Shown one piece after another: positions 538 through 12,187 of a DNA stretch of 17,677 nucleotides (its first letter is position 1; each line of letters opens with the position of its first letter). Source of the DNA: a virus. The notes beneath the pieces were generated by a model. The model did not search any database, was not told the origin of the DNA, and was given only the letters and a program-made list of their open reading frames with translations. The translations under genes were made by a program, and so were the position numbers. The stretch lies in UHGV virus genome UHGV-0132791. The stretch is one strand, 5' to 3'.

Positions 538-813
538 ATGTCTGTATATACAACCGCAGAATTACTGGCATCGACCCAGCATCACTTTAAGTTCGATCCG
601 CTGTTTCTGCGCCTGTTTTTCCGTGAAACCTATCCTTTCACCACGGAGAAAGTCTATCTCTCACAAATTCCGGGACTGGTAAACATGGCGCTGTACGTTT
701 CGCCGATTGTTTCCGGTGAGGTTATCCGATCCCGTGGCGGCTCCACCTCTGAATTTACGCCGGGTTATGTCAAACCCAAGCACTTAGCATGGCTTTCTGA
801 GGCTTTCGTGTAG
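538..813 (+). pseudogene. E: Major capsid protein gpE, 5' fragment (codons 1-82), interrupted by insertion; ends in 9 element-encoded codons and a stop
   Basis: Translation MSVYTTAELLA…FKFDPLFLRLFFRE.YPFTTEKVYLSQIPGLVNMALYVSPIVSGEVIRSRGGSTSEFTPGYVKPKH matches the lambda gpE N-terminus; similarity stops after codon CAC (781-783), followed by LAWLSEAFV* (TAG 811-813). Confidence 0.9.
773..782 (+). repeat. Left copy of 10-bp att core / target duplication (AACCCAAGCA)
   Basis: Exact 10-bp identity with 11397-11406, located exactly at the E breakpoint. Confidence 0.75.
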
Positions 814-2479: not shown

Positions 2480-3016
2480 TTATAAGAGATTAAATCCAAA
2501 TAAAGAGTAATCATATACCGGGGTGCATTGCATCCCACTGAATATGCTGATGTTTTTTTCTGTTTCTATCCTTTTTTCAATAAGTTGTTGTATATTTTTA
2601 CAGTACAATTTGTGTGTGATGTTATTATCGTAAGCCTGATATAGCAACGTCAATGTTGATGCTATGAAACATGCAGAAAGAAAATGAACTAGTACATGTG
2701 AGCGTTTTTTGGTTGTCCATGATGCATTCGCTTGTGAAATATAAATCATTCTGAGAATGATAATGATGATAGACAGTAACAGACCACTCAATAAAATAAG
2801 TATTGGGTTTGCGTATTTAATTAATGGTTGAGAGCAAAAAACTATTATAGCTCCTGTGACTGCGTATGAGAAAAAGGAGTAATTAAACTTCTTACTCCTT
2901 CTCTCAAGTATTTTAATTTCATCTTGTGTGGGGGGTTTAGATGCCTCCAATATAAGTTTATTAAATGTTTCTGTTATCTTGTTTTTTGTGTTTTTGGCTA
3001 TTTTTTTTAGATTCAT
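2480..3016 (-). CDS. Small membrane protein (two predicted hydrophobic helices), function unknown; AT-rich cargo gene
   Basis: 178-aa ORF with hydrophobic stretches (…AVTGAIIVFCSQPLIKYANPILILLSGLLLSIIIIILRMIYI… and …HVLVHFLSACFIASTLTLLYQAY…); visibly lower GC than its neighbours; GGAG-like SD upstream of the ATG (rc of 3014-3016). Confidence 0.6.
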   Translation of the reverse strand: MNLKKIAKNTKNKITETFNKLILEASKPPTQDEIKILERRSKKFNYSFFSYAVTGAIIVFCSQPLIKYANPILILLSGLLLSIIIIILRMIYISQANASWTTKKRSHVLVHFLSACFIASTLTLLYQAYDNNITHKLYCKNIQQLIEKRIETEKNISIFSGMQCTPVYDYSLFGFNLL

Positions 3017-3366: not shown

Positions 3367-3669
3367 TTATTCAGATTCTTTGGCTTTACGCCGCTGGAGT
3401 TCTTCACGAGCGACGGCTACGAGTTGCCCGATTTCCTCCGCTGCCTTGATGCCGATTTGTTCGACCTTAGCTAAGGCATCCAGTGAAGACACGAGGGGAT
3501 TTTCTCCGCTTCCTTCTGCCTGGCGGCGGGCGATCTCACCGCGCATGGCGGTTACTATGAATCCGGCGTTGCTTTCGCCGTCCAGTTTTACGGATTCCAT
3601 GCCCTCCATAACATCGTGGGGAACCCTGATCGTTGTCATTTGCGATTTTGCATTTTTGTATACAGACAT
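3367..3669 (-). CDS. Putative ribbon-helix-helix (Arc/CopG-like) transcriptional regulator; candidate element repressor
   Basis: 100-aa ORF; the N-terminus has an RHH-like pattern (β-strand TTIRVPHDV, helix, G-E-S-N turn, helix AGFIVTAMRGEIARR); transcribed divergently from the main element operon across a repeat-bearing intergenic region. Confidence 0.55.
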   Translation of the reverse strand: MSVYKNAKSQMTTIRVPHDVMEGMESVKLDGESNAGFIVTAMRGEIARRQAEGSGENPLVSSLDALAKVEQIGIKAAEEIGQLVAVAREELQRRKAKESE

Positions 3670-4851: not shown

Positions 4852-5151
4852 ATGGAAATGAAAAATTCTGGCTTTATTGCCAGCGGCCCCGCTCGGCCTG
4901 AATTTATGAACGGCGATATTTACCGCGATAAATACGGCGGCACGGTAACGATTAAAGGCGTGGCAGAACGGCGCATTACTTACCGCCGTGAGGGGTATAG
5001 CTATGACTGCGTGATGCCTGTTTATCAGTTCCGGCGTGATTTTTCCCTGGTATATGCCGCACCCCGCAGTAAGCCCATCAGCAGGGAAAAAGCGCGGGGA
5101 AACATCCAGAAAATGAAAAGCATGATTAACGCATTCAGGGGCAAAAAATGA
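4852..5151 (+). CDS. Hypothetical protein
   Basis: 99-aa ORF with GAGG SD; its stop overlaps the pri-rep start (ATGA at 5148-5151). Confidence 0.5.
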   Translation: MEMKNSGFIASGPARPEFMNGDIYRDKYGGTVTIKGVAERRITYRREGYSYDCVMPVYQFRRDFSLVYAAPRSKPISREKARGNIQKMKSMINAFRGKK

Positions 5152-6899
5152 AACTGGCACCGAACTTAAAAAAACAGCCACGCGACAGACTGACAGAGGT
5201 AATCATCTTTGCAGGTAGTGATGCGTGGAGCCATGCGAAAGAGTGGCAGGAATGGGCGGGTAAACATATTGCCGCCGACGATGTGCCGCCTGTCGTGCTG
5301 GCTGATGAGCAACTGAAAAATATCACCGATTACCGGATCATTGATGAAGATCGTCAGTGTGTGCGTGTTTACCGCGCAGGACATATCACAGAGCACAGCA
5401 TGACGCAGATTGTTACGTTATTGGCTGTGGCTGGAGTGAAGACCGTACACGAATACGCGGGGATTACTGACACCAGCCCCGTGGATTTATCCGACCAGTT
5501 GCCGCGACTCAAAGAGGAATGCGAGCGTGGGGAAAGTCTGGTGCTTAATCTTCCGACGAAGCAAAAGGCGCAACTTTCACAGATGGCAGACAGTGAACGT
5601 GCACAACTACTTGCCGATCGCTTTGATGGTGTGTGTGTTCATGCAGAAAGTGAAATCGTCCACGTATGGCGCGGCGGGGTATGGTGTCCGGTCAGCACAA
5701 TGGAGCTGAGCCGCGAAATGGTGGCGATCTATTCAGAGCACAGGGCCACATTCAGCAAGCGTGCAATTAATAACGCCGTGGAGGCGTTAAAAGTTATTGC
5801 CGACCCCATGGGGGAGCCGTCCGGTGATTTGCTACCGTTCGCCAATGGTGTGCTTGACCTGAAAACGGGGGAATTTTCCCCGCACTCGCCGGAGAACTGG
5901 ATCACCACGCACAACGGCATTGAGTACACGCCACCAGCACCAGGGGAGAACATCCGCGACAACGCGCCAAACTTTCATAAATGGCTTGATCACGCAGCCG
6001 GAAAAGACCCGCGCAAGATGATGCGTATATGTGCCGCGCTGTACATGATTATGGCGAACCGGTACGACTGGCAGATGTTTATTGAGGCCACCGGAGAGGG
6101 CGGTAGCGGTAAAAGTACATTCACACACATAGCCAGCCTTCTGGCAGGGAAACAGAACACGGTAAGCGCTGAAATGACATCGCTTGATGATGCTGGTGGA
6201 CGTGCGCAGGTTGTCGGGAGTCGTCTTATCGTCCTGGCTGACCAGCCGAAATATACAGGCGAAGGCACGGGCATCAAGAAAATCACGGGCGGCGACCCCG
6301 TGGAAATAAACCCGAAATATGAAAAGCGTTTTACGGCGGTAATCAGGGCGGTGGTGCTGGCTACCAACAATAACCCGATGATATTCACCGAACGGGCCGG
6401 AGGTGTGTCACGTCGTCGCGTAATTTTCCGCTTCGACAATATCGTTAGCGAGGCAGAAAAGGACAAGGATTTACCGGAGAAGGTCGCGGCTGAAATCCCC
6501 GTGATTATCCGCAGATTGCTGGCAAACTTTGCTGATCCAGAAAAGGCGCGACATTTGTTGATTGAACAGCGCGACGGTGAAGAAGCACTGGCGATAAAGC
6601 AACAGACGGATCCGGTTATTGAGTTTTGCCAGTTTCTGAATTTTCTGGAGGAAGCGCGCGGCCTGATGATGGGTGGCGGTGGCGATTCCGTGAAGTACAC
6701 GACCAGAAACAGCCTTTACCGCGTCTATCTGGCGTTTATGGCATACGCAGGCAGAAGCAAGCCGCTAAACGTGGCTGATTTCAGCAAGGCCATGAAGCCA
6801 GCGGCGAAAGTTTACGGATGTGAATATATAACGCGCAGGGTTAAAGGACTTACGCAAACCAATGTGACAACAACAGAGGATTGCGACGCGTTTTTATAA
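5148..6899 (+). CDS. Replication initiator, primase-helicase type (P4 alpha C-terminal / PICI Pri-Rep-like SF3 ATPase)
   Basis: 583 aa; Walker A GEGGSGKST (6093-6119), Walker B-like LIVLAD; overall pattern of the phage/plasmid primase P4-family C-terminal domain; followed directly by an iteron array. Confidence 0.85.
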   Translation: MKLAPNLKKQPRDRLTEVIIFAGSDAWSHAKEWQEWAGKHIAADDVPPVVLADEQLKNITDYRIIDEDRQCVRVYRAGHITEHSMTQIVTLLAVAGVKTVHEYAGITDTSPVDLSDQLPRLKEECERGESLVLNLPTKQKAQLSQMADSERAQLLADRFDGVCVHAESEIVHVWRGGVWCPVSTMELSREMVAIYSEHRATFSKRAINNAVEALKVIADPMGEPSGDLLPFANGVLDLKTGEFSPHSPENWITTHNGIEYTPPAPGENIRDNAPNFHKWLDHAAGKDPRKMMRICAALYMIMANRYDWQMFIEATGEGGSGKSTFTHIASLLAGKQNTVSAEMTSLDDAGGRAQVVGSRLIVLADQPKYTGEGTGIKKITGGDPVEINPKYEKRFTAVIRAVVLATNNNPMIFTERAGGVSRRRVIFRFDNIVSEAEKDKDLPEKVAAEIPVIIRRLLANFADPEKARHLLIEQRDGEEALAIKQQTDPVIEFCQFLNFLEEARGLMMGGGGDSVKYTTRNSLYRVYLAFMAYAGRSKPLNVADFSKAMKPAAKVYGCEYITRRVKGLTQTNVTTTEDCDAFL

Positions 6900-7185: not shown

Positions 7186-7443
7186 ATGCACACATCAGGA
7201 AAACTGAACAAACATATAAAGCCACATTACCGCGCCCTTGATATGGCTGAACATTGGCTAAGGGTGGCGATTAAGGCAATAGATCGCAACGCCGGGGAAG
7301 GATACGCGAAAGCACATCCCGAACTGATAAGCGCATTCATGACAACGGCGGCTGCAAACTTTGCCACGCTGACCGAACGGGAGATTGCCGAAGCGGAGGA
7401 AGTGACAACCATCAATATTAAGTCCGGAGAGCAGGCAGCTTGA
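7186..7443 (+). CDS. Hypothetical protein
   Basis: 85-aa ORF, ATG at 7186 preceded by GAGGGGG; stop overlaps the start of the next gene. Confidence 0.5.
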   Translation: MHTSGKLNKHIKPHYRALDMAEHWLRVAIKAIDRNAGEGYAKAHPELISAFMTTAAANFATLTEREIAEAEEVTTINIKSGEQAA

Positions 7444-7850
7444 CGGCGCAAATAGCAGCTTACGGGCGGCTGGTGGACGACCCACAGGTAAAACATACCA
7501 GCAAGGGAGCACCCATGACACTGGCACGGATGACGGTATCTTTGCCATGCAGCCAGGCAGATGACGGAACGGCGACGATGTGGTTATCTGTCCTGGCGTT
7601 TGGCAGACAAGCCGACGCGCTGGCAAAGCATCACAAAGGCGAACTCCTGAGCGTGGCGGGTAATATGCAGGTGAGCCAGTGGAGCGGACAGAACGGTGAA
7701 ACGCGGCAGCGCTGGCAGGTTATCGCAGACAGCGTAATCAGTGCGCGAACGGTGCGACCTGGCGGGAACAGACGTAAAACCACAGGCACACAGGGCAACA
7801 CACCACCAGCGGGAGGGGATGATCTCTACGGTGACAATATTCCATTCTGA
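7440..7850 (+). CDS. ssb: Single-stranded DNA-binding protein (SSB-like, OB fold)
   Basis: Pattern resembling E. coli SSB (…GRLVDDPQV…, …WLSVLAFGRQADALAKHHKGELLSVAGNMQVSQWSGQNGETRQRWQVIAD…) and a C-terminal tip …DNIPF like the SSB DDDIPF tail. Start is a TTG at 7440 overlapping the upstream stop; exact start uncertain. Confidence 0.7.
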   Translation: MTAQIAAYGRLVDDPQVKHTSKGAPMTLARMTVSLPCSQADDGTATMWLSVLAFGRQADALAKHHKGELLSVAGNMQVSQWSGQNGETRQRWQVIADSVISARTVRPGGNRRKTTGTQGNTPPAGGDDLYGDNIPF

Positions 7851-8114: not shown

Positions 8115-9155
8115 ATGAGTGATTTATATTCGCCAGCGGAGTTAATACAGACTGTTAATGCTGAAGATATTCAATGGCAGATTAACTCTTTATTTATAAA
8201 CCTGTTTTTTAAGCGAGTCGTTACATTTGAGACGCGGGATATTGCGCTTGATATTATTGACGATCCAGACATCCCGATGGCTGCATTTTGTTCCCCTATG
8301 GTTGGTAGTAAAGTATCACGCGATGAAGGCTACGAATCAAAAGTAATTCGCCCTGGCTACATGAAGCCAAAAAGTAGTATAGACCCAAATAAAATAGCCG
8401 TTCGTCAACCAGGCGTATCACCGGAACAATTCAATGCATATTCATCACGCAATTTCAAAATAAAGCGAGCGATGGTAAGACAAGCGCAGGCCATTCGCGC
8501 ACGTATTGAATGGCTTGCTGTTCAGGCAATCACAACGGGGAAAAATATCATTGAGGGCGATGGCATTGAACGTTATGAACTGGACTGGAATATAAAACCA
8601 CAAAATATTATCACGCAGTCCGGCGGCACGGAGTGGAGCGGTAGAGATTTATCAACATTTGATCCAAATGATGACATCGAAGAGTACGCAGAAATCAGCG
8701 AAGGGACTACAAATATCATCGTAATGGGACGCAACGTATGGAAAAAATACCGCGCCTTTAAAGCAGTAAAAGATTGCCTTGATACTCGACGGGGATCTAA
8801 TTCCGTTCTTGAAACGGCCCTGAAAAATCTTGGGGATTCCGTCAGTTTTAAGGGTTACGTAGGCGATGTGGCTATTGTTGTGTATAGCGGACGTTATACC
8901 GACGAGGACGGAACAGAAAAATATTTCCTTGATCCTGATTTGATGGTTCTTGGCAATACATCACTTCAGGGCATCGTTGCATACGGTGGCATTCAGGATC
9001 CGGAGCTAATCCGAATGGGGCTGACTAAAGCCGAACTCGCACCGAAAAACTACATTGTGCCTGGAGATCCGGCTATTGAGTACGTACAAACGCACTCTGC
9101 ACCACAGCCAATACCGGCCCGCATCAATCGTTTTGTTACCGTTCGCATTGGTTAA
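8115..9155 (+). CDS. Element-encoded major capsid protein, lambda gpE paralogue
   Basis: 346 aa; clearly homologous but divergent from gpE (shared blocks PGYMKPK, ITQSGGTEWS.RD.ST.DP.DDIEEYA, KAVKD.LDTRRGSNS.LETA.K.LG..VS.KGY.GDVAIVVYSG.Y, MVLGNT); strong SD AAGAGG. Confidence 0.9.
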   Translation: MSDLYSPAELIQTVNAEDIQWQINSLFINLFFKRVVTFETRDIALDIIDDPDIPMAAFCSPMVGSKVSRDEGYESKVIRPGYMKPKSSIDPNKIAVRQPGVSPEQFNAYSSRNFKIKRAMVRQAQAIRARIEWLAVQAITTGKNIIEGDGIERYELDWNIKPQNIITQSGGTEWSGRDLSTFDPNDDIEEYAEISEGTTNIIVMGRNVWKKYRAFKAVKDCLDTRRGSNSVLETALKNLGDSVSFKGYVGDVAIVVYSGRYTDEDGTEKYFLDPDLMVLGNTSLQGIVAYGGIQDPELIRMGLTKAELAPKNYIVPGDPAIEYVQTHSAPQPIPARINRFVTVRIG

Positions 9156-9164
9156 GGGGGAGCA

Positions 9165-9506
9165 ATGGCTACTCATTACACTGAACTCATGGCTGGCACT
9201 GAAGCACTGGTTACTACGTTGGGGATATTTTCAGCTAATAAAGGGGTAATTCCTGCATTTACGCCACTGATGCAAGAAGATGCAACTGGTGCACTGGTGG
9301 TATGGGATGGAACGAGCGCAGGCAAAGCTGTTTATGTTTCCGCTGTACAAATCGATACAGCGACAAAAACGCAGGCTCAGGTTTATAAAACCGGCGTCTT
9401 AAATGTTGATGCTCTGAACTGGCCTGAGTCTGTAACACAACTATCAGCAAAAGTTGCTGCGTTTGTTGGCTCAGGTATTTCTGTTCAGCCGCTGGCACGT
9501 GTGTGA
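9165..9506 (+). CDS. Element-encoded head decoration protein, lambda gpD paralogue
   Basis: 113 aa; gpD-like blocks (TPLM…LVVWDGT…YKTG…WPE…) and length; immediately downstream of the capsid paralogue, with SD AAGGGGGAG. Confidence 0.8.
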   Translation: MATHYTELMAGTEALVTTLGIFSANKGVIPAFTPLMQEDATGALVVWDGTSAGKAVYVSAVQIDTATKTQAQVYKTGVLNVDALNWPESVTQLSAKVAAFVGSGISVQPLARV

Positions 9507-9515
9507 GGTACGAGA

Positions 9516-9860
9516 ATGATTGAAAGAGATAGTCAGCTACGAGAGCTATTAGATATCGATGACAAAATGCGCTTAAGCGAGCGTCTTGTCGATATGAATC
9601 AGGTGATGGAACTTACAACCCTGAGTCGCCGTACACTGCTAAACCTTGAGGCTCGTGGAGAGTTCCCTGAGCGTGTGCAGGTTACGGAAGGGCGTAAGGC
9701 TTGGTATTTAAGCGAGGTTGTTGAGTGGATTAACAATATCCCGCGAGCATCAAACTATTGCCTCGTACCCACACCGGAAAAACCTGATGCGGCGTTATGC
9801 CTCAAGATTGAACGCGCCAGGCGTAATGCCCTGAAAGGGCGCAATAAGTTGATTGGTTGA
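9516..9860 (+). CDS. Second AlpA-family HTH regulator
   Basis: 114 aa; …MNQVMELTTLSRRTLLNLEARGEFPERVQVTEGRKAWYLSEVVEWI… is AlpA/HTH_17-like; located between the decoration gene and the cos site. Confidence 0.7.
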   Translation: MIERDSQLRELLDIDDKMRLSERLVDMNQVMELTTLSRRTLLNLEARGEFPERVQVTEGRKAWYLSEVVEWINNIPRASNYCLVPTPEKPDAALCLKIERARRNALKGRNKLIG

Positions 9861-9868
9861 TGAAATTA

Positions 9869-9895
9869 GGGCCCGCTCTGGCTGGCGGGTCCTTT
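9869..9895 (+). terminator. GC-rich hairpin plus short T run after second AlpA-like gene
   Basis: GGGCCCGC (9869-9876) / 8-nt loop / GCGGGTCC (9885-9892) with one G·U pair, followed by TTT. Confidence 0.35.
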
Positions 9896-9913
9896 CCGGC
9901 AATCCGGCAGACT

Positions 9914-9950
9914 ACGGGGCGGAAGGCGCGCGGGTTTTCGCTATTTATGA
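9914..9950. other. cos-like site (cosN region) of the element
   Basis: ACGGGGCGGAAGGCGCGCGGGTTTTCGCTATTTATGA: flanks match the lambda cos left-end sequence as I recall it (…ACGGGGCGGCGACCTCGCGGGTTTTCGCTATTTATGA…), but the central hexamer differs (AAGGCG vs CGACCT); lies about 150 bp upstream of the Nu1-like TerS, as in lambda. Confidence 0.6.
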
Positions 9951-10076
9951 GCATTTTTAGGGGACTGGTGGTGGTTTTGTTGTTCGCTATATCTGTATGA
10001 ATAATAAGAGAAAAACACAATCAACACACCAACCTGAAACAGTAATTAAGTTGTGGTATCAATGAAATTGCACCTG

Positions 10077-10604
10077 ATGAACAAAAAAAACATGGCAAAA
10101 AGTTGCCGTGTAAGCGCCACTGCGTTCGATAAGTGGGGAGTGATTCCCGTCGAGCGTAAGGGCCGCGAGGCGTTTTATGATGTCGCCAGTGTAATAGATA
10201 ATCGGGTTAACAATGCAATCAGCCAGATTACAAACGAAACGGGCGAGATTGATGATGATGAACTCCTACGAGTCAGGATCAGATTGCTGACAGCACAGGC
10301 AGAGGCGCAGGAGCTTAAAAACGAGCGCGAACGCGGCGACGTTATTGATACAGCGTTTTGTATATACGTGCTTTCAAAACTGGCGAGTCAGATTTCTTCA
10401 ATCATGGACAGCCTGCCGCTTGCCATGACAAGGAAGTTTCCCGACATGAAGCCGTCTATGCTGGATGGACTGAAAAAAGAAGTTATCAGAGCCTGTAACG
10501 CATGCGCAAAACTTGACGAAAACATACCGCTGATGCTGTCCGATTATCTGATGGAAACTGCCGGAAACGTACCGGATAAGTTGCAGCTGAATAAAGATAA
10601 GTAA
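10077..10604 (+). CDS. Terminase small subunit, lambda Nu1-like
   Basis: Homology to lambda Nu1 (MNKKNMAKS…YDVASVID…LLTAQAEAQELKNERERGDVIDTAFCIYVLSKLASQISSIMDSLPLAMTRKFPDMK vs Nu1 …LTRAQADAQELKNARDSAEVVETAFCTFVLSRIAGEIASILDGLPLSVQRRFPELE). ORF track begins at a GTG at 10053; ATG 10077 is chosen by alignment with the Nu1 N-terminus. Confidence 0.85.
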   Translation: MNKKNMAKSCRVSATAFDKWGVIPVERKGREAFYDVASVIDNRVNNAISQITNETGEIDDDELLRVRIRLLTAQAEAQELKNERERGDVIDTAFCIYVLSKLASQISSIMDSLPLAMTRKFPDMKPSMLDGLKKEVIRACNACAKLDENIPLMLSDYLMETAGNVPDKLQLNKDK

Positions 10605-10615
10605 CGTAGTACGCT

Positions 10616-10897
10616 ATGACTGAATCCGAAATACTGCGATTAATCCGCCGTGCTTGTGGAATCAGCAAGCAGCATGACGAACAGGCCACGCAGCCGGACA
10701 GCGTGATCGCCGAAAATTACGCGCGTGTTGTTGCTGATGTGATGCGCCGTGATGGTATTGAGCTTAACGGCGTGGATATGCGCGACATACGGATCAGATT
10801 CCTTGAGTTGCTGGCATACCGTCGCCGTTCTCAACAACGAAGGGAGAGCGCGAAAAACACTTATCAGTGGAAGAAGCCGGAACGGTTGCGGCGGTAG
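10616..10897 (+). CDS. Hypothetical basic protein downstream of TerS
   Basis: 93-aa ORF, ATG at 10616 twelve nt after the TerS stop; no recognisable similarity to terminase large subunit. Confidence 0.45.
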   Translation: MTESEILRLIRRACGISKQHDEQATQPDSVIAENYARVVADVMRRDGIELNGVDMRDIRIRFLELLAYRRRSQQRRESAKNTYQWKKPERLRR

Positions 10898-11396: not shown

Positions 11397-11406
11397 AACC
11401 CAAGCA
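11397..11406 (+). repeat. Right copy of 10-bp att core / target duplication (AACCCAAGCA)
   Basis: Identical to 773-782; preceded by an in-frame TAA (11396-11398) that ends the element-side frame. Confidence 0.75.
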
Positions 11407-12187
11407 TGAGGTGAATCCGCAGATGACCCTGCGTCGCCTGCCGGATGAAGATCCGCAGAACCTGGCTGACCCGGCTTACCGTCGTCGCCGTATTATTCGG
11501 CAGAATATGCTGGATGAAAATCTGGCGATTGCCCAGGTCGAAGAGATGCAGGCAGTTTCTGCCGTGCTTAAGGGCAAATATACCATGACCGGTGAAGCCT
11601 TCGATCCGGTTGAGGTGGATATGGGCCGCAGTGAGGCGAATAACATCACGCAGTCCGGCGGCACGGAGTGGAGCAAGCGTGACAAGTCCACGTATGACCC
11701 GACCGACGATATCGAAGCCTACGCGCTGAACGCCAGCGGTGTGGTGAATATCATCGTGTTCGATCCGAAAGGCTGGGCGCTGTTCCGTTCCTTCAAAGCC
11801 GTCAAGGAGAAGCTGGATACCCGTCGCGGCTCTCATTCCGAGCTGGAGACAGCGGTAAAAGACCTGGGCAAAGCGGTGTCCTATAAGGGAATGTATGGCG
11901 ATGTGGCCATCGTCGTGTATTCCGGACAGTACGTGGAAAACGGCGTCAAAAAGAACTTCCTGCCGGACAACACGATGGTGCTGGGGAACACTCAGGCTCG
12001 CGGTCTGCGCACCTATGGCTGCATTCAGGATGCGGACGCACAGCGCGAAGGCATTAACGCCTCTGCCCGTTACCCGAAAAACTGGGTGACCACCGGCGAT
12101 CCGGCGCGTGAGTTCACCATGATTCAGTCAGCACCGCTGATGCTGCTGGCTGATCCTGATGAGTTCGTGTCCGTACAACTGGCGTAA
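11399..12187 (+). pseudogene. E: Major capsid protein gpE, 3' fragment (codons ~80-341), separated from its 5' part by the insertion
   Basis: Translation PKHEVNPQMTLRRLPDEDPQNLADPAYRRRRII…DEFVSVQLA* matches the lambda gpE C-terminal 260 residues almost exactly; there is no start codon or RBS of its own at the homology boundary (the ORF track starts at an internal GTG at 11411). Confidence 0.9.

Follow-up and report, generated by a model that had tools for sequence, protein, structure and literature searches.

We propose that the 12-nt segment at 9917-9928 of the window, by which we mean the whole 17,677-nt stretch of viral DNA that was analysed (UHGV-0132791), is the cosN cohesive segment of a satellite of the 11capE family, representing a minority allele that is shared with phages, is served by the same terminase and differs from the helper's ends as a tolerated by-product; we give this reading a probability of about 0.6. 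Read directly, positions 9914-9941 of the window are ACG GGGCGGAAGGCG CGCGGGTTTTCGC. Column-for-column alignment places the canonical 12-mer, GGGCGGCGACCT, between the same flanks in phage 21 (M81255, with an annotated cos) and HK630, and lambda and phi80 cosN are printed as GGGCGGCGACCT in the supplement of Fillol-Salom et al. 2018 (PMC6092414), by which the lambda overhang given in a preliminary description of this DNA proves to be correct. Against the canonical sequence the allele of the window, here termed V1, carries 7 C>A, 8 G>A, 9 A>G, 10 C>G and 12 T>G, while position 11 (C) is the same; positions 1-6 and 11 are identical to lambda, the left half being GGGCGG. That description had the flanks and the first six positions shared, as they are, and had all of the last six differing, where five of the six do and position 11 is unchanged.

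As judged from the conservation of a cosQ-like sequence, the 12-bp spacing, both flanking CGs and an I2-like sequence (Table 1), the resemblance of this site to the lambda cos is not by chance. The distance from cosQ to the 12-mer is the same as in lambda-like phages, and the site falls between genes, in a gap of 200 bp with a Nu1-family gene downstream. By homology to lambda, the top strand is presumed to be nicked at 9916/9917 and the bottom strand at 9928/9929, and the 12 bases of V1 would form the cohesive overhang; no record of the phage collection begins at the V1 12-mer. To the right of TTATGA, from 9951 onward, a lambda-type cosB (R3-I1-R2-R1) is absent and the sequence is unrelated to the cosB of lambda, 21 and HK630. 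By a position argument from PMC9026076 the equivalent of R3 (bp 48-65 from the left end) corresponds to 9964-9981, and a search for R-like elements in the element cosB returned just weak two-copy matches. The element cosB is therefore probably private, as in Rpp-type PICIs.

Table 1. Features of the window relevant to the element and its cos site.
Feature	Position	Strand	Basis or remark
5' part of resident major capsid gene E	538..782	+	91-aa product with PF03864 Phage_cap_E; alignment with the intact E of prophage L006 extends to 782
attL core AACCCAAGCA, 10-bp identity block	773..782	+	alignment of attL, attR and intact E
Tyrosine integrase, 411 aa	946..2181	+	Pfam Arm-DNA-bind_3 and Phage_integrase
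Primase/helicase	5148..6899	+	D5_N, DUF5906
Element gpE-family major capsid homologue	8115..9155	+	Pfam Phage_cap_E, E=3e-42
Element gpD-family head decoration homologue	9165..9506	+	Pfam HDPD, E=3e-16
AlpA-family HTH protein, directly upstream of cos	9516..9860	+	Pfam Phage_AlpA
68-bp cos core cassette (cosQ, spacer, 12-mer, I2-like)	9883..9950	+	alignment to Rb-50 prophage
cosQ-like GGGTCCTTTCCG	9887..9898	+	invariant or near-invariant in cos sites examined
cosN, CG / GGGCGGAAGGCG / CG	9915..9930	+	CG/CG flanks and the 2/11 pair kept as in lambda (PMC4669245, PMC9026076)
12-mer, cosN allele V1, GGGCGGAAGGCG	9917..9928	+	differs from lambda at 7, 8, 9, 10, 12
I2-like TTTTCGCTATTTATGA	9935..9950	+	end of phage-shared segment; I2 annotated in phage 21 record
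Element-specific cosB region	9951..10061	+	without similarity to lambda R3-I1-R2-R1; co-varies with TerS N-terminal domain
Element TerS, 180 aa, Nu1 family	10062..10604	+	Pfam Phage_Nu1, E=1e-24
93-aa ORF, downstream of TerS	10616..10897	+	no Pfam hit; conserved in related elements (L027-L034)
attR core AACCCAAGCA	11397..11406	+	same alignment as attL
3' part of resident gene E	11407..12187	+	followed by FI, FII, Z, U, V, G/T and H tail genes to the window end

The gene E insertion, the 10-bp att core, the integrase, alpA, the primase, the gpE and gpD homologues, the cos and the TerS (PMC10111431) together identify, at the level of sequence, the element as a helper-embedded PICI of ~10.6 kb that belongs to the published 11capE family and lies inside gene E of a lambda-like prophage. 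The AACCCAAGCA block matches the 10-bp block reported for 11capE (PMC10111431), and the ORF of the interrupted 5' part of E extends into element sequence to 813. The PICI gene set is complete (integrase, alpA, pri and an own capsid homologue), a length of 10.6 kb lies within the 10-20 kb range of such elements, and the other element genes comprise alpA and those for an Icd-like protein, DUF4222 and SSB. The identical integrase protein is indexed in thousands of assemblies, with insertion in gene E in every contig inspected, and the shared site and synteny suggest that it belongs to the HE clade. The closest described relative, Eco567.11capE in prophage 50icd of E. coli NRG857c (Barth et al. 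2023, PMC10111431), occupies the same gene E site with the same 10-bp att core, also in a lambda-like host prophage, and has the same order of int, alpA, Icd-like gene, DUF4222, primase, SSB, gpE and gpD homologues, AlpA-like gene and cos. It was, however, described without terS and with a cos region of ~258 bp that is 90% identical to the helper's, including a lambda-type cosB, whereas the element of the window has its own TerS and a private cosB; cosN and the cohesive ends go unmentioned for 11capE in that paper. The element is, on these features, a TerS-plus-private-cosB member of the helper-embedded PICI family.

Several observations were made on the variable parts of this and related elements, whose contigs are cited by our locus numbers (L). 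Cargo hotspots are found after alpA and between cos/TerS and attR, and their contents in relatives (L007:20345-21106, L008:19204-20346, L011:19271-20987, L025:11910-12785) include TIR, CAP12-PCTIR, Abi_C, putAbiC, HEPN/GmrSD and DUF2971 proteins, which are candidate anti-phage defences. In the window the first hotspot holds genes for a 178-aa predicted membrane protein and a YlcI/YnfO-like protein, at 2480-3016 and 3367-3669, both on the minus strand, and the second is empty. The SSB (window 7440-7850) is called as 136, 111 or 149 aa across the contigs of near-identical relatives, and in L027:14165-15556 the capsid and decoration genes of the element are fused in one 463-aa ORF. The contig L029 (13193-20366) matches the left 6.9 kb of the window at 98.9% and then carries a different capsid/cos module with the canonical 12-mer and a phage-21-like flank, CGCGCG TTTTCAC; it runs into chromosomal genes (pertactin, response regulator, CcmH) and not into the 3' part of E, which reflects a rearrangement or else chimeric assembly of the metagenome.

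The window ends ~5.6 kb short of the resident cos, and the allele of the resident prophage is inferred from six near-identical contigs. Contigs with 99.8-99.94% identity to the window were reached through exact-protein look-ups, L030 showing 9 mismatches over 14,243 bp; no complete E. coli genome came closer than 95%. All six contigs with both sites (L027, L028, L030-L033) have the canonical GGGCGGCGACCT and a lambda-type cosB at the resident cos and GGGCGGAAGGCG at the element cos. In a wider set of 29 embedded loci, which are related by descent so that the counts describe this sample alone, the resident cos is canonical in 28, V1 in one and V2 (GGGCGTCAGGCG) in none, and the element cos is canonical in three, V1 in eight and V2 in 18, with element and resident 12-mers differing in 26 of the 29. 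The proposal in the preliminary description that element genomes have ends different from the helper's thus holds, for presumptive ends, in each of the six near-identical contigs and in 26 of the 29 loci. Its alternative, simple lineage variation with the same variant in the resident helper, stands in part: the resident is canonical, but the same allele is present in real lambda-like phages. The further idea in that description, that differing ends could prevent mixed concatemer packaging, is imprecise. In our reading it is cosB and TerS, and not the sequence of the overhang, that determine which DNA is cut or packaged, and a mismatch of overhangs would at most block the cyclizing of satellite/helper hybrid chromosomes or of mixed end-joins. 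In a chromosome that combines a satellite end with a helper end, five of the 12 positions would be mismatched; this is far worse than a 2-bp end mismatch, which already lowers the yield about 4-fold (Feiss et al. 2015, PMC4669245).

The TerS of the element scores 87 bits against Phage_Nu1 (cutoff 30) and is 38% identical to the resident Nu1 over 180 aa (BLASTP, E=1e-36), in an alignment that is nearly full length and reaches the C-terminal residue of Nu1. Identity to the resident Nu1 rises to ~49% in the C-terminal half, and the N-terminal region with the DNA-binding recognition helix is divergent. When elements are compared, this N-terminal region co-varies perfectly with the type of cosB: elements with a lambda-type cosB have a TerS N-terminus identical to that of Nu1, and those with the private cosB have the divergent N-terminus of the window. 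The same private TerS/cosB is found with canonical, V1 and V2 12-mers, and the 12-mer allele is therefore uncoupled from the type of TerS and cosB. A PDB sequence search for solved-structure relatives of the element TerS gave no match at E≤0.01. An identity of the protein downstream of cos as Rpp, a short protein without the C-terminal TerL-binding region of TerS, was considered and ruled out by its 180 aa, the full length of Nu1, and its Phage_Nu1 domain. A separate, 183-aa TerS is encoded in some embedded elements with a lambda-type cosB (L015:19014-19565, L026:19663-20214); its first ~105 residues are essentially those of the helper Nu1 and its C-terminal third is divergent, and it might be a decoy or competitor for the helper TerS rather than a specificity switch.

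The arrangement in the window has parallels in two other groups of satellites. Cos PICIs of the EcCICFT073 type (Fillol-Salom 2018/2019; Feiss review 2022) likewise combine phage-like cosQ and cosN with a private cosB, are packaged by the lambda-type TerL of the helper and have their specificity set by the gene downstream of cos. The cos1 of EcCICFT073 differs in having the canonical 12-mer and a short Rpp that heterodimerises with the phage TerS, where the window has a non-canonical 12-mer and a full-length TerS of 180 aa. SaPI-type satellites with their own TerS follow the same logic, a small terminase redirecting the helper large terminase, but in a pac/headful system of Gram-positive cocci, in contrast to the cos system of the window with its defined 12-nt ends (background knowledge and PMC6092414).

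The preliminary description had further suggested that the variant overhang might reflect co-evolution with a different helper terminase, a suggestion that finds no support in the ~99% identity of gpA across classes, in the independence of the allele from TerS and cosB or in published work on lambda (PMC4669245). In all-against-all comparison the gpA proteins of three variant-cos phages and of five canonical-cos prophages show 98.9-99.8% identity, and among these eight no position separates the variant-cos from the canonical-cos class. Changes at bp 7-12 leave the lambda TerL unaffected, the lambda and N15 terminases give equal yields with a lambda or an N15 cosN, and the cosN change G2C is severe where the symmetric C11G is silent (PMC4669245). 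TerS, acting at cosB, sets the position of the bottom-strand nick (Feiss et al. 2015, PMC4669245; PMC12315714; PMC9026076). Natural cosN variants all lie within bp 7-12, at bp 9 and 12 in N15 and phiD326, at bp 8, 9 and 11 in Gifsy-1 and at bp 9 and 10 in mEp213/LLS (PMC4669245, PMC12315714). No special terminase would be needed for V1, because its changes lie in the half of cosN that is not read by TerL; the published tolerance tests span one to three cosN changes, and V1 has five. Lambda cos and its natural variants share with the window the architecture and spacing, GGGCGG, the flanking CG/CG, G2 and C11, and vary in the right half as the window does; the window, however, changes five of the six right-half positions at once, more than in any described variant that we found, and has a cosB unrelated to that of lambda.

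V1 is a bona fide, naturally occurring minority phage allele of the lambda-type cosN. It is present exactly in the phages PhiR46_1 and YDC107_1, ahead of ordinary Nu1 and gpA genes, and an intact lambda-like prophage of E. coli Rb-50 has a cos core that matches the 68-bp core of the window at 100%, beyond which the sequences are unrelated on either side. Counted by an allele-specific 46-mer (megablast also seeds on V2 elements through the shared right side, with 90-95% matches), V1 has 166 sites, spread over 155 of the 5,426 complete E. coli genomes; 16 of these sites are on plasmids of ~46-68 kb. The canonical allele has 8,601, which makes ~98% of the lambda-type cos sites canonical. Among IMG/VR contigs an exact match to V1 is found on 61 in a phage context and on four in an element context, and V2 in 51 element and three phage contexts. 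Twenty IMG/VR contigs have the cos type of the window, eight with V2, seven with the canonical 12-mer, four with V1 and one with a fourth allele, GGGCGGCTGACG; their changes all fall within positions 6-12, and the alleles are reassorted against variants of the cosQ-cosN spacer. G2, C11 and the flanking CG/CG are kept in every allele seen. The cos type of the window was found in none of the GTDB species representatives scanned, and a full-text literature search with both 12-mers and their reverse complements returned unrelated papers alone, V1 being printed in no phage paper found.

The same data bear on the idea that the true helper is a different lambda-like phage with a GGGCGGAAGGCG cos, to which the core of the element has been matched. 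The perfect identity of the 68-bp core to that of an intact variant-cos prophage would fit such a helper, as would the predominance of V1 in phages over elements and the reasonable abundance of variant-cos phages, ~46-kb phage-plasmids among them. Since variant-cos and canonical-cos phages have in effect one and the same gpA, though, matching would bring no advantage in cutting, and the element in any case supplies its own TerS and cosB. The lineage of the window is moreover found with a canonical-cos prophage in at least six independent isolates and metagenomes, and the embedded configuration itself points to the embedding prophage as helper (PMC10111431), so that we consider a different helper improbable. 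Still less credible, to the point of being rejected, is that V1 represents a decayed cos whose changes are the erosion of a site no longer cut. Five substitutions within 6 bp could be taken as erosion, and the resident prophage is defective in some relatives (a portal pseudogene in L005, a split gpA in L011). The cosQ, the spacing, the left half, the flanking CG and I2 are nevertheless intact, the changes are confined to positions that vary among functional phages, the site is 100% conserved in relatives from independent samples, and the deposited complete genomes of PhiR46_1 and YDC107_1 use the identical 12-mer.

Some details of the allele distribution are recorded here in their own right. 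V2 differs from V1 only at positions 6 and 7, position 6 belonging to the "conserved" left half; it is the commonest allele of the embedded satellites (18/29), being found at the element cos sites of L008-L026 and L176 (e.g. L011:18794-18860) and in the IMG/VR loci L037-L093, and the V2 12-mer is absent from the 50,697 phage records searched. The fourth allele lies on an element-type cos framework at about 9054-9097 of L181 (IMGVR_UViG_2534682158_000020). V1 is also the cos allele of E. coli plasmids of ~46-68 kb that resemble N15-type phage-plasmids (e.g. NZ_CP055252.1 and NZ_CP101200.1, ~46 kb), and differs there from the published ends of N15, which depart from lambda at bp 9 and 12; YDC107_1 (L001) is classified in Ravinvirus. 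Between L005:23910-23975 and L025:18870-18935 the flanks are identical and the difference is confined to the 12-mer, and in L021:19340-19410 a left half of the window type (spacer and V1) is joined to a right flank and cosB of the kind usual in V2 elements. Such fine-scale cos mosaics are the products that would be expected if alleles swap via the heteroduplex cohesive ends of hybrid chromosomes, by analogy with the mismatch experiments of Feiss.

In the mechanism that we favour for the satellite, its Nu1-like TerS would bind the satellite-specific cosB, and the conserved C-terminal half of this TerS would recruit the gpA of the helper. The gpA would then nick at the usual positions, guided by the spacing from cosB, the conserved left half and the flanking CGs. 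Satellite DNA would thereby receive self-complementary GGGCGGAAGGCG ends, allowing it to cyclize yet providing no match to the ends of the embedding helper. V1 most likely reached the satellite as a module, either the 68-bp core or the 12-bp overhang itself, in an exchange between satellites and phages of the variant-cos type. We take the V1 allele to be probably neutral; what pure neutrality would not obviously lead one to expect is that the lambda-type cos sites of E. coli are almost uniformly canonical, whereas satellites carry at least four alleles at intermediate frequencies. This diversity of satellite alleles may reflect history together with relaxed constraint, or selection for private ends in elements that share the DNA molecule of the helper.

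The latter possibility leads to a reading in which embedded satellites have been selected for cohesive ends that are unable to anneal to those of the helper. Chromosomes running from the satellite cos to the helper cos of the unexcised composite (or the reverse), as well as mixed end-joins after injection, would then fail to cyclize or ligate, and the two replicons would stay separate. This would account for 12-mers that differ in 26 of the 29 embedded loci, the six near-identical relatives of the window among them, for the dominance in satellites of non-canonical alleles that make up ~2% of lambda-type cos sites overall, for the 51:3 ratio of V2 between elements and phages in IMG/VR and for the coexistence of several alleles on identical flanks; with a 2-bp mismatch already causing a ~4-fold loss of yield (PMC4669245), five mismatches should be far worse. 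Set against this, residents are ~97% canonical and elements ~90% non-canonical, so that the rate of mismatch equals that of independent assortment and no co-variation is shown. Canonical ends are moreover found in three of the 29 embedded elements and in seven of the 20 elements with the cos type of the window, and the model PICI EcCICFT073, which shares the canonical 12-mer with its helpers, transfers well (PMC6092414). A satellite has no evident gain in fitness from the killing of hybrids, and the samples are related by descent. We therefore regard adaptive incompatibility of ends as rather unlikely. Comparably doubtful is a stronger form, in which diversifying selection would have made the satellite 12-mer a hypervariable identity tag, with 12-bp cassettes being exchanged through heteroduplexes of the ends; if it were true, satellite/helper hybrid chromosomes packaged from cos to cos would be dead on arrival, a kind of post-packaging isolation that has not been described before.

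On the reading that we prefer, V1 as a shared minority allele served by the common terminase, a 12-mer that departs from lambda's at a lambda-type cos is no sign of another packaging enzyme. Two further points, neither of which we found in the literature examined, are that the sticky ends of a satellite and of the helper in which it is embedded are usually non-matching, and that satellites carry far more sticky-end alleles than lambda-like phages do. Finally, the cosN alleles are usable as markers of the exchange of cos modules between phages and satellites.
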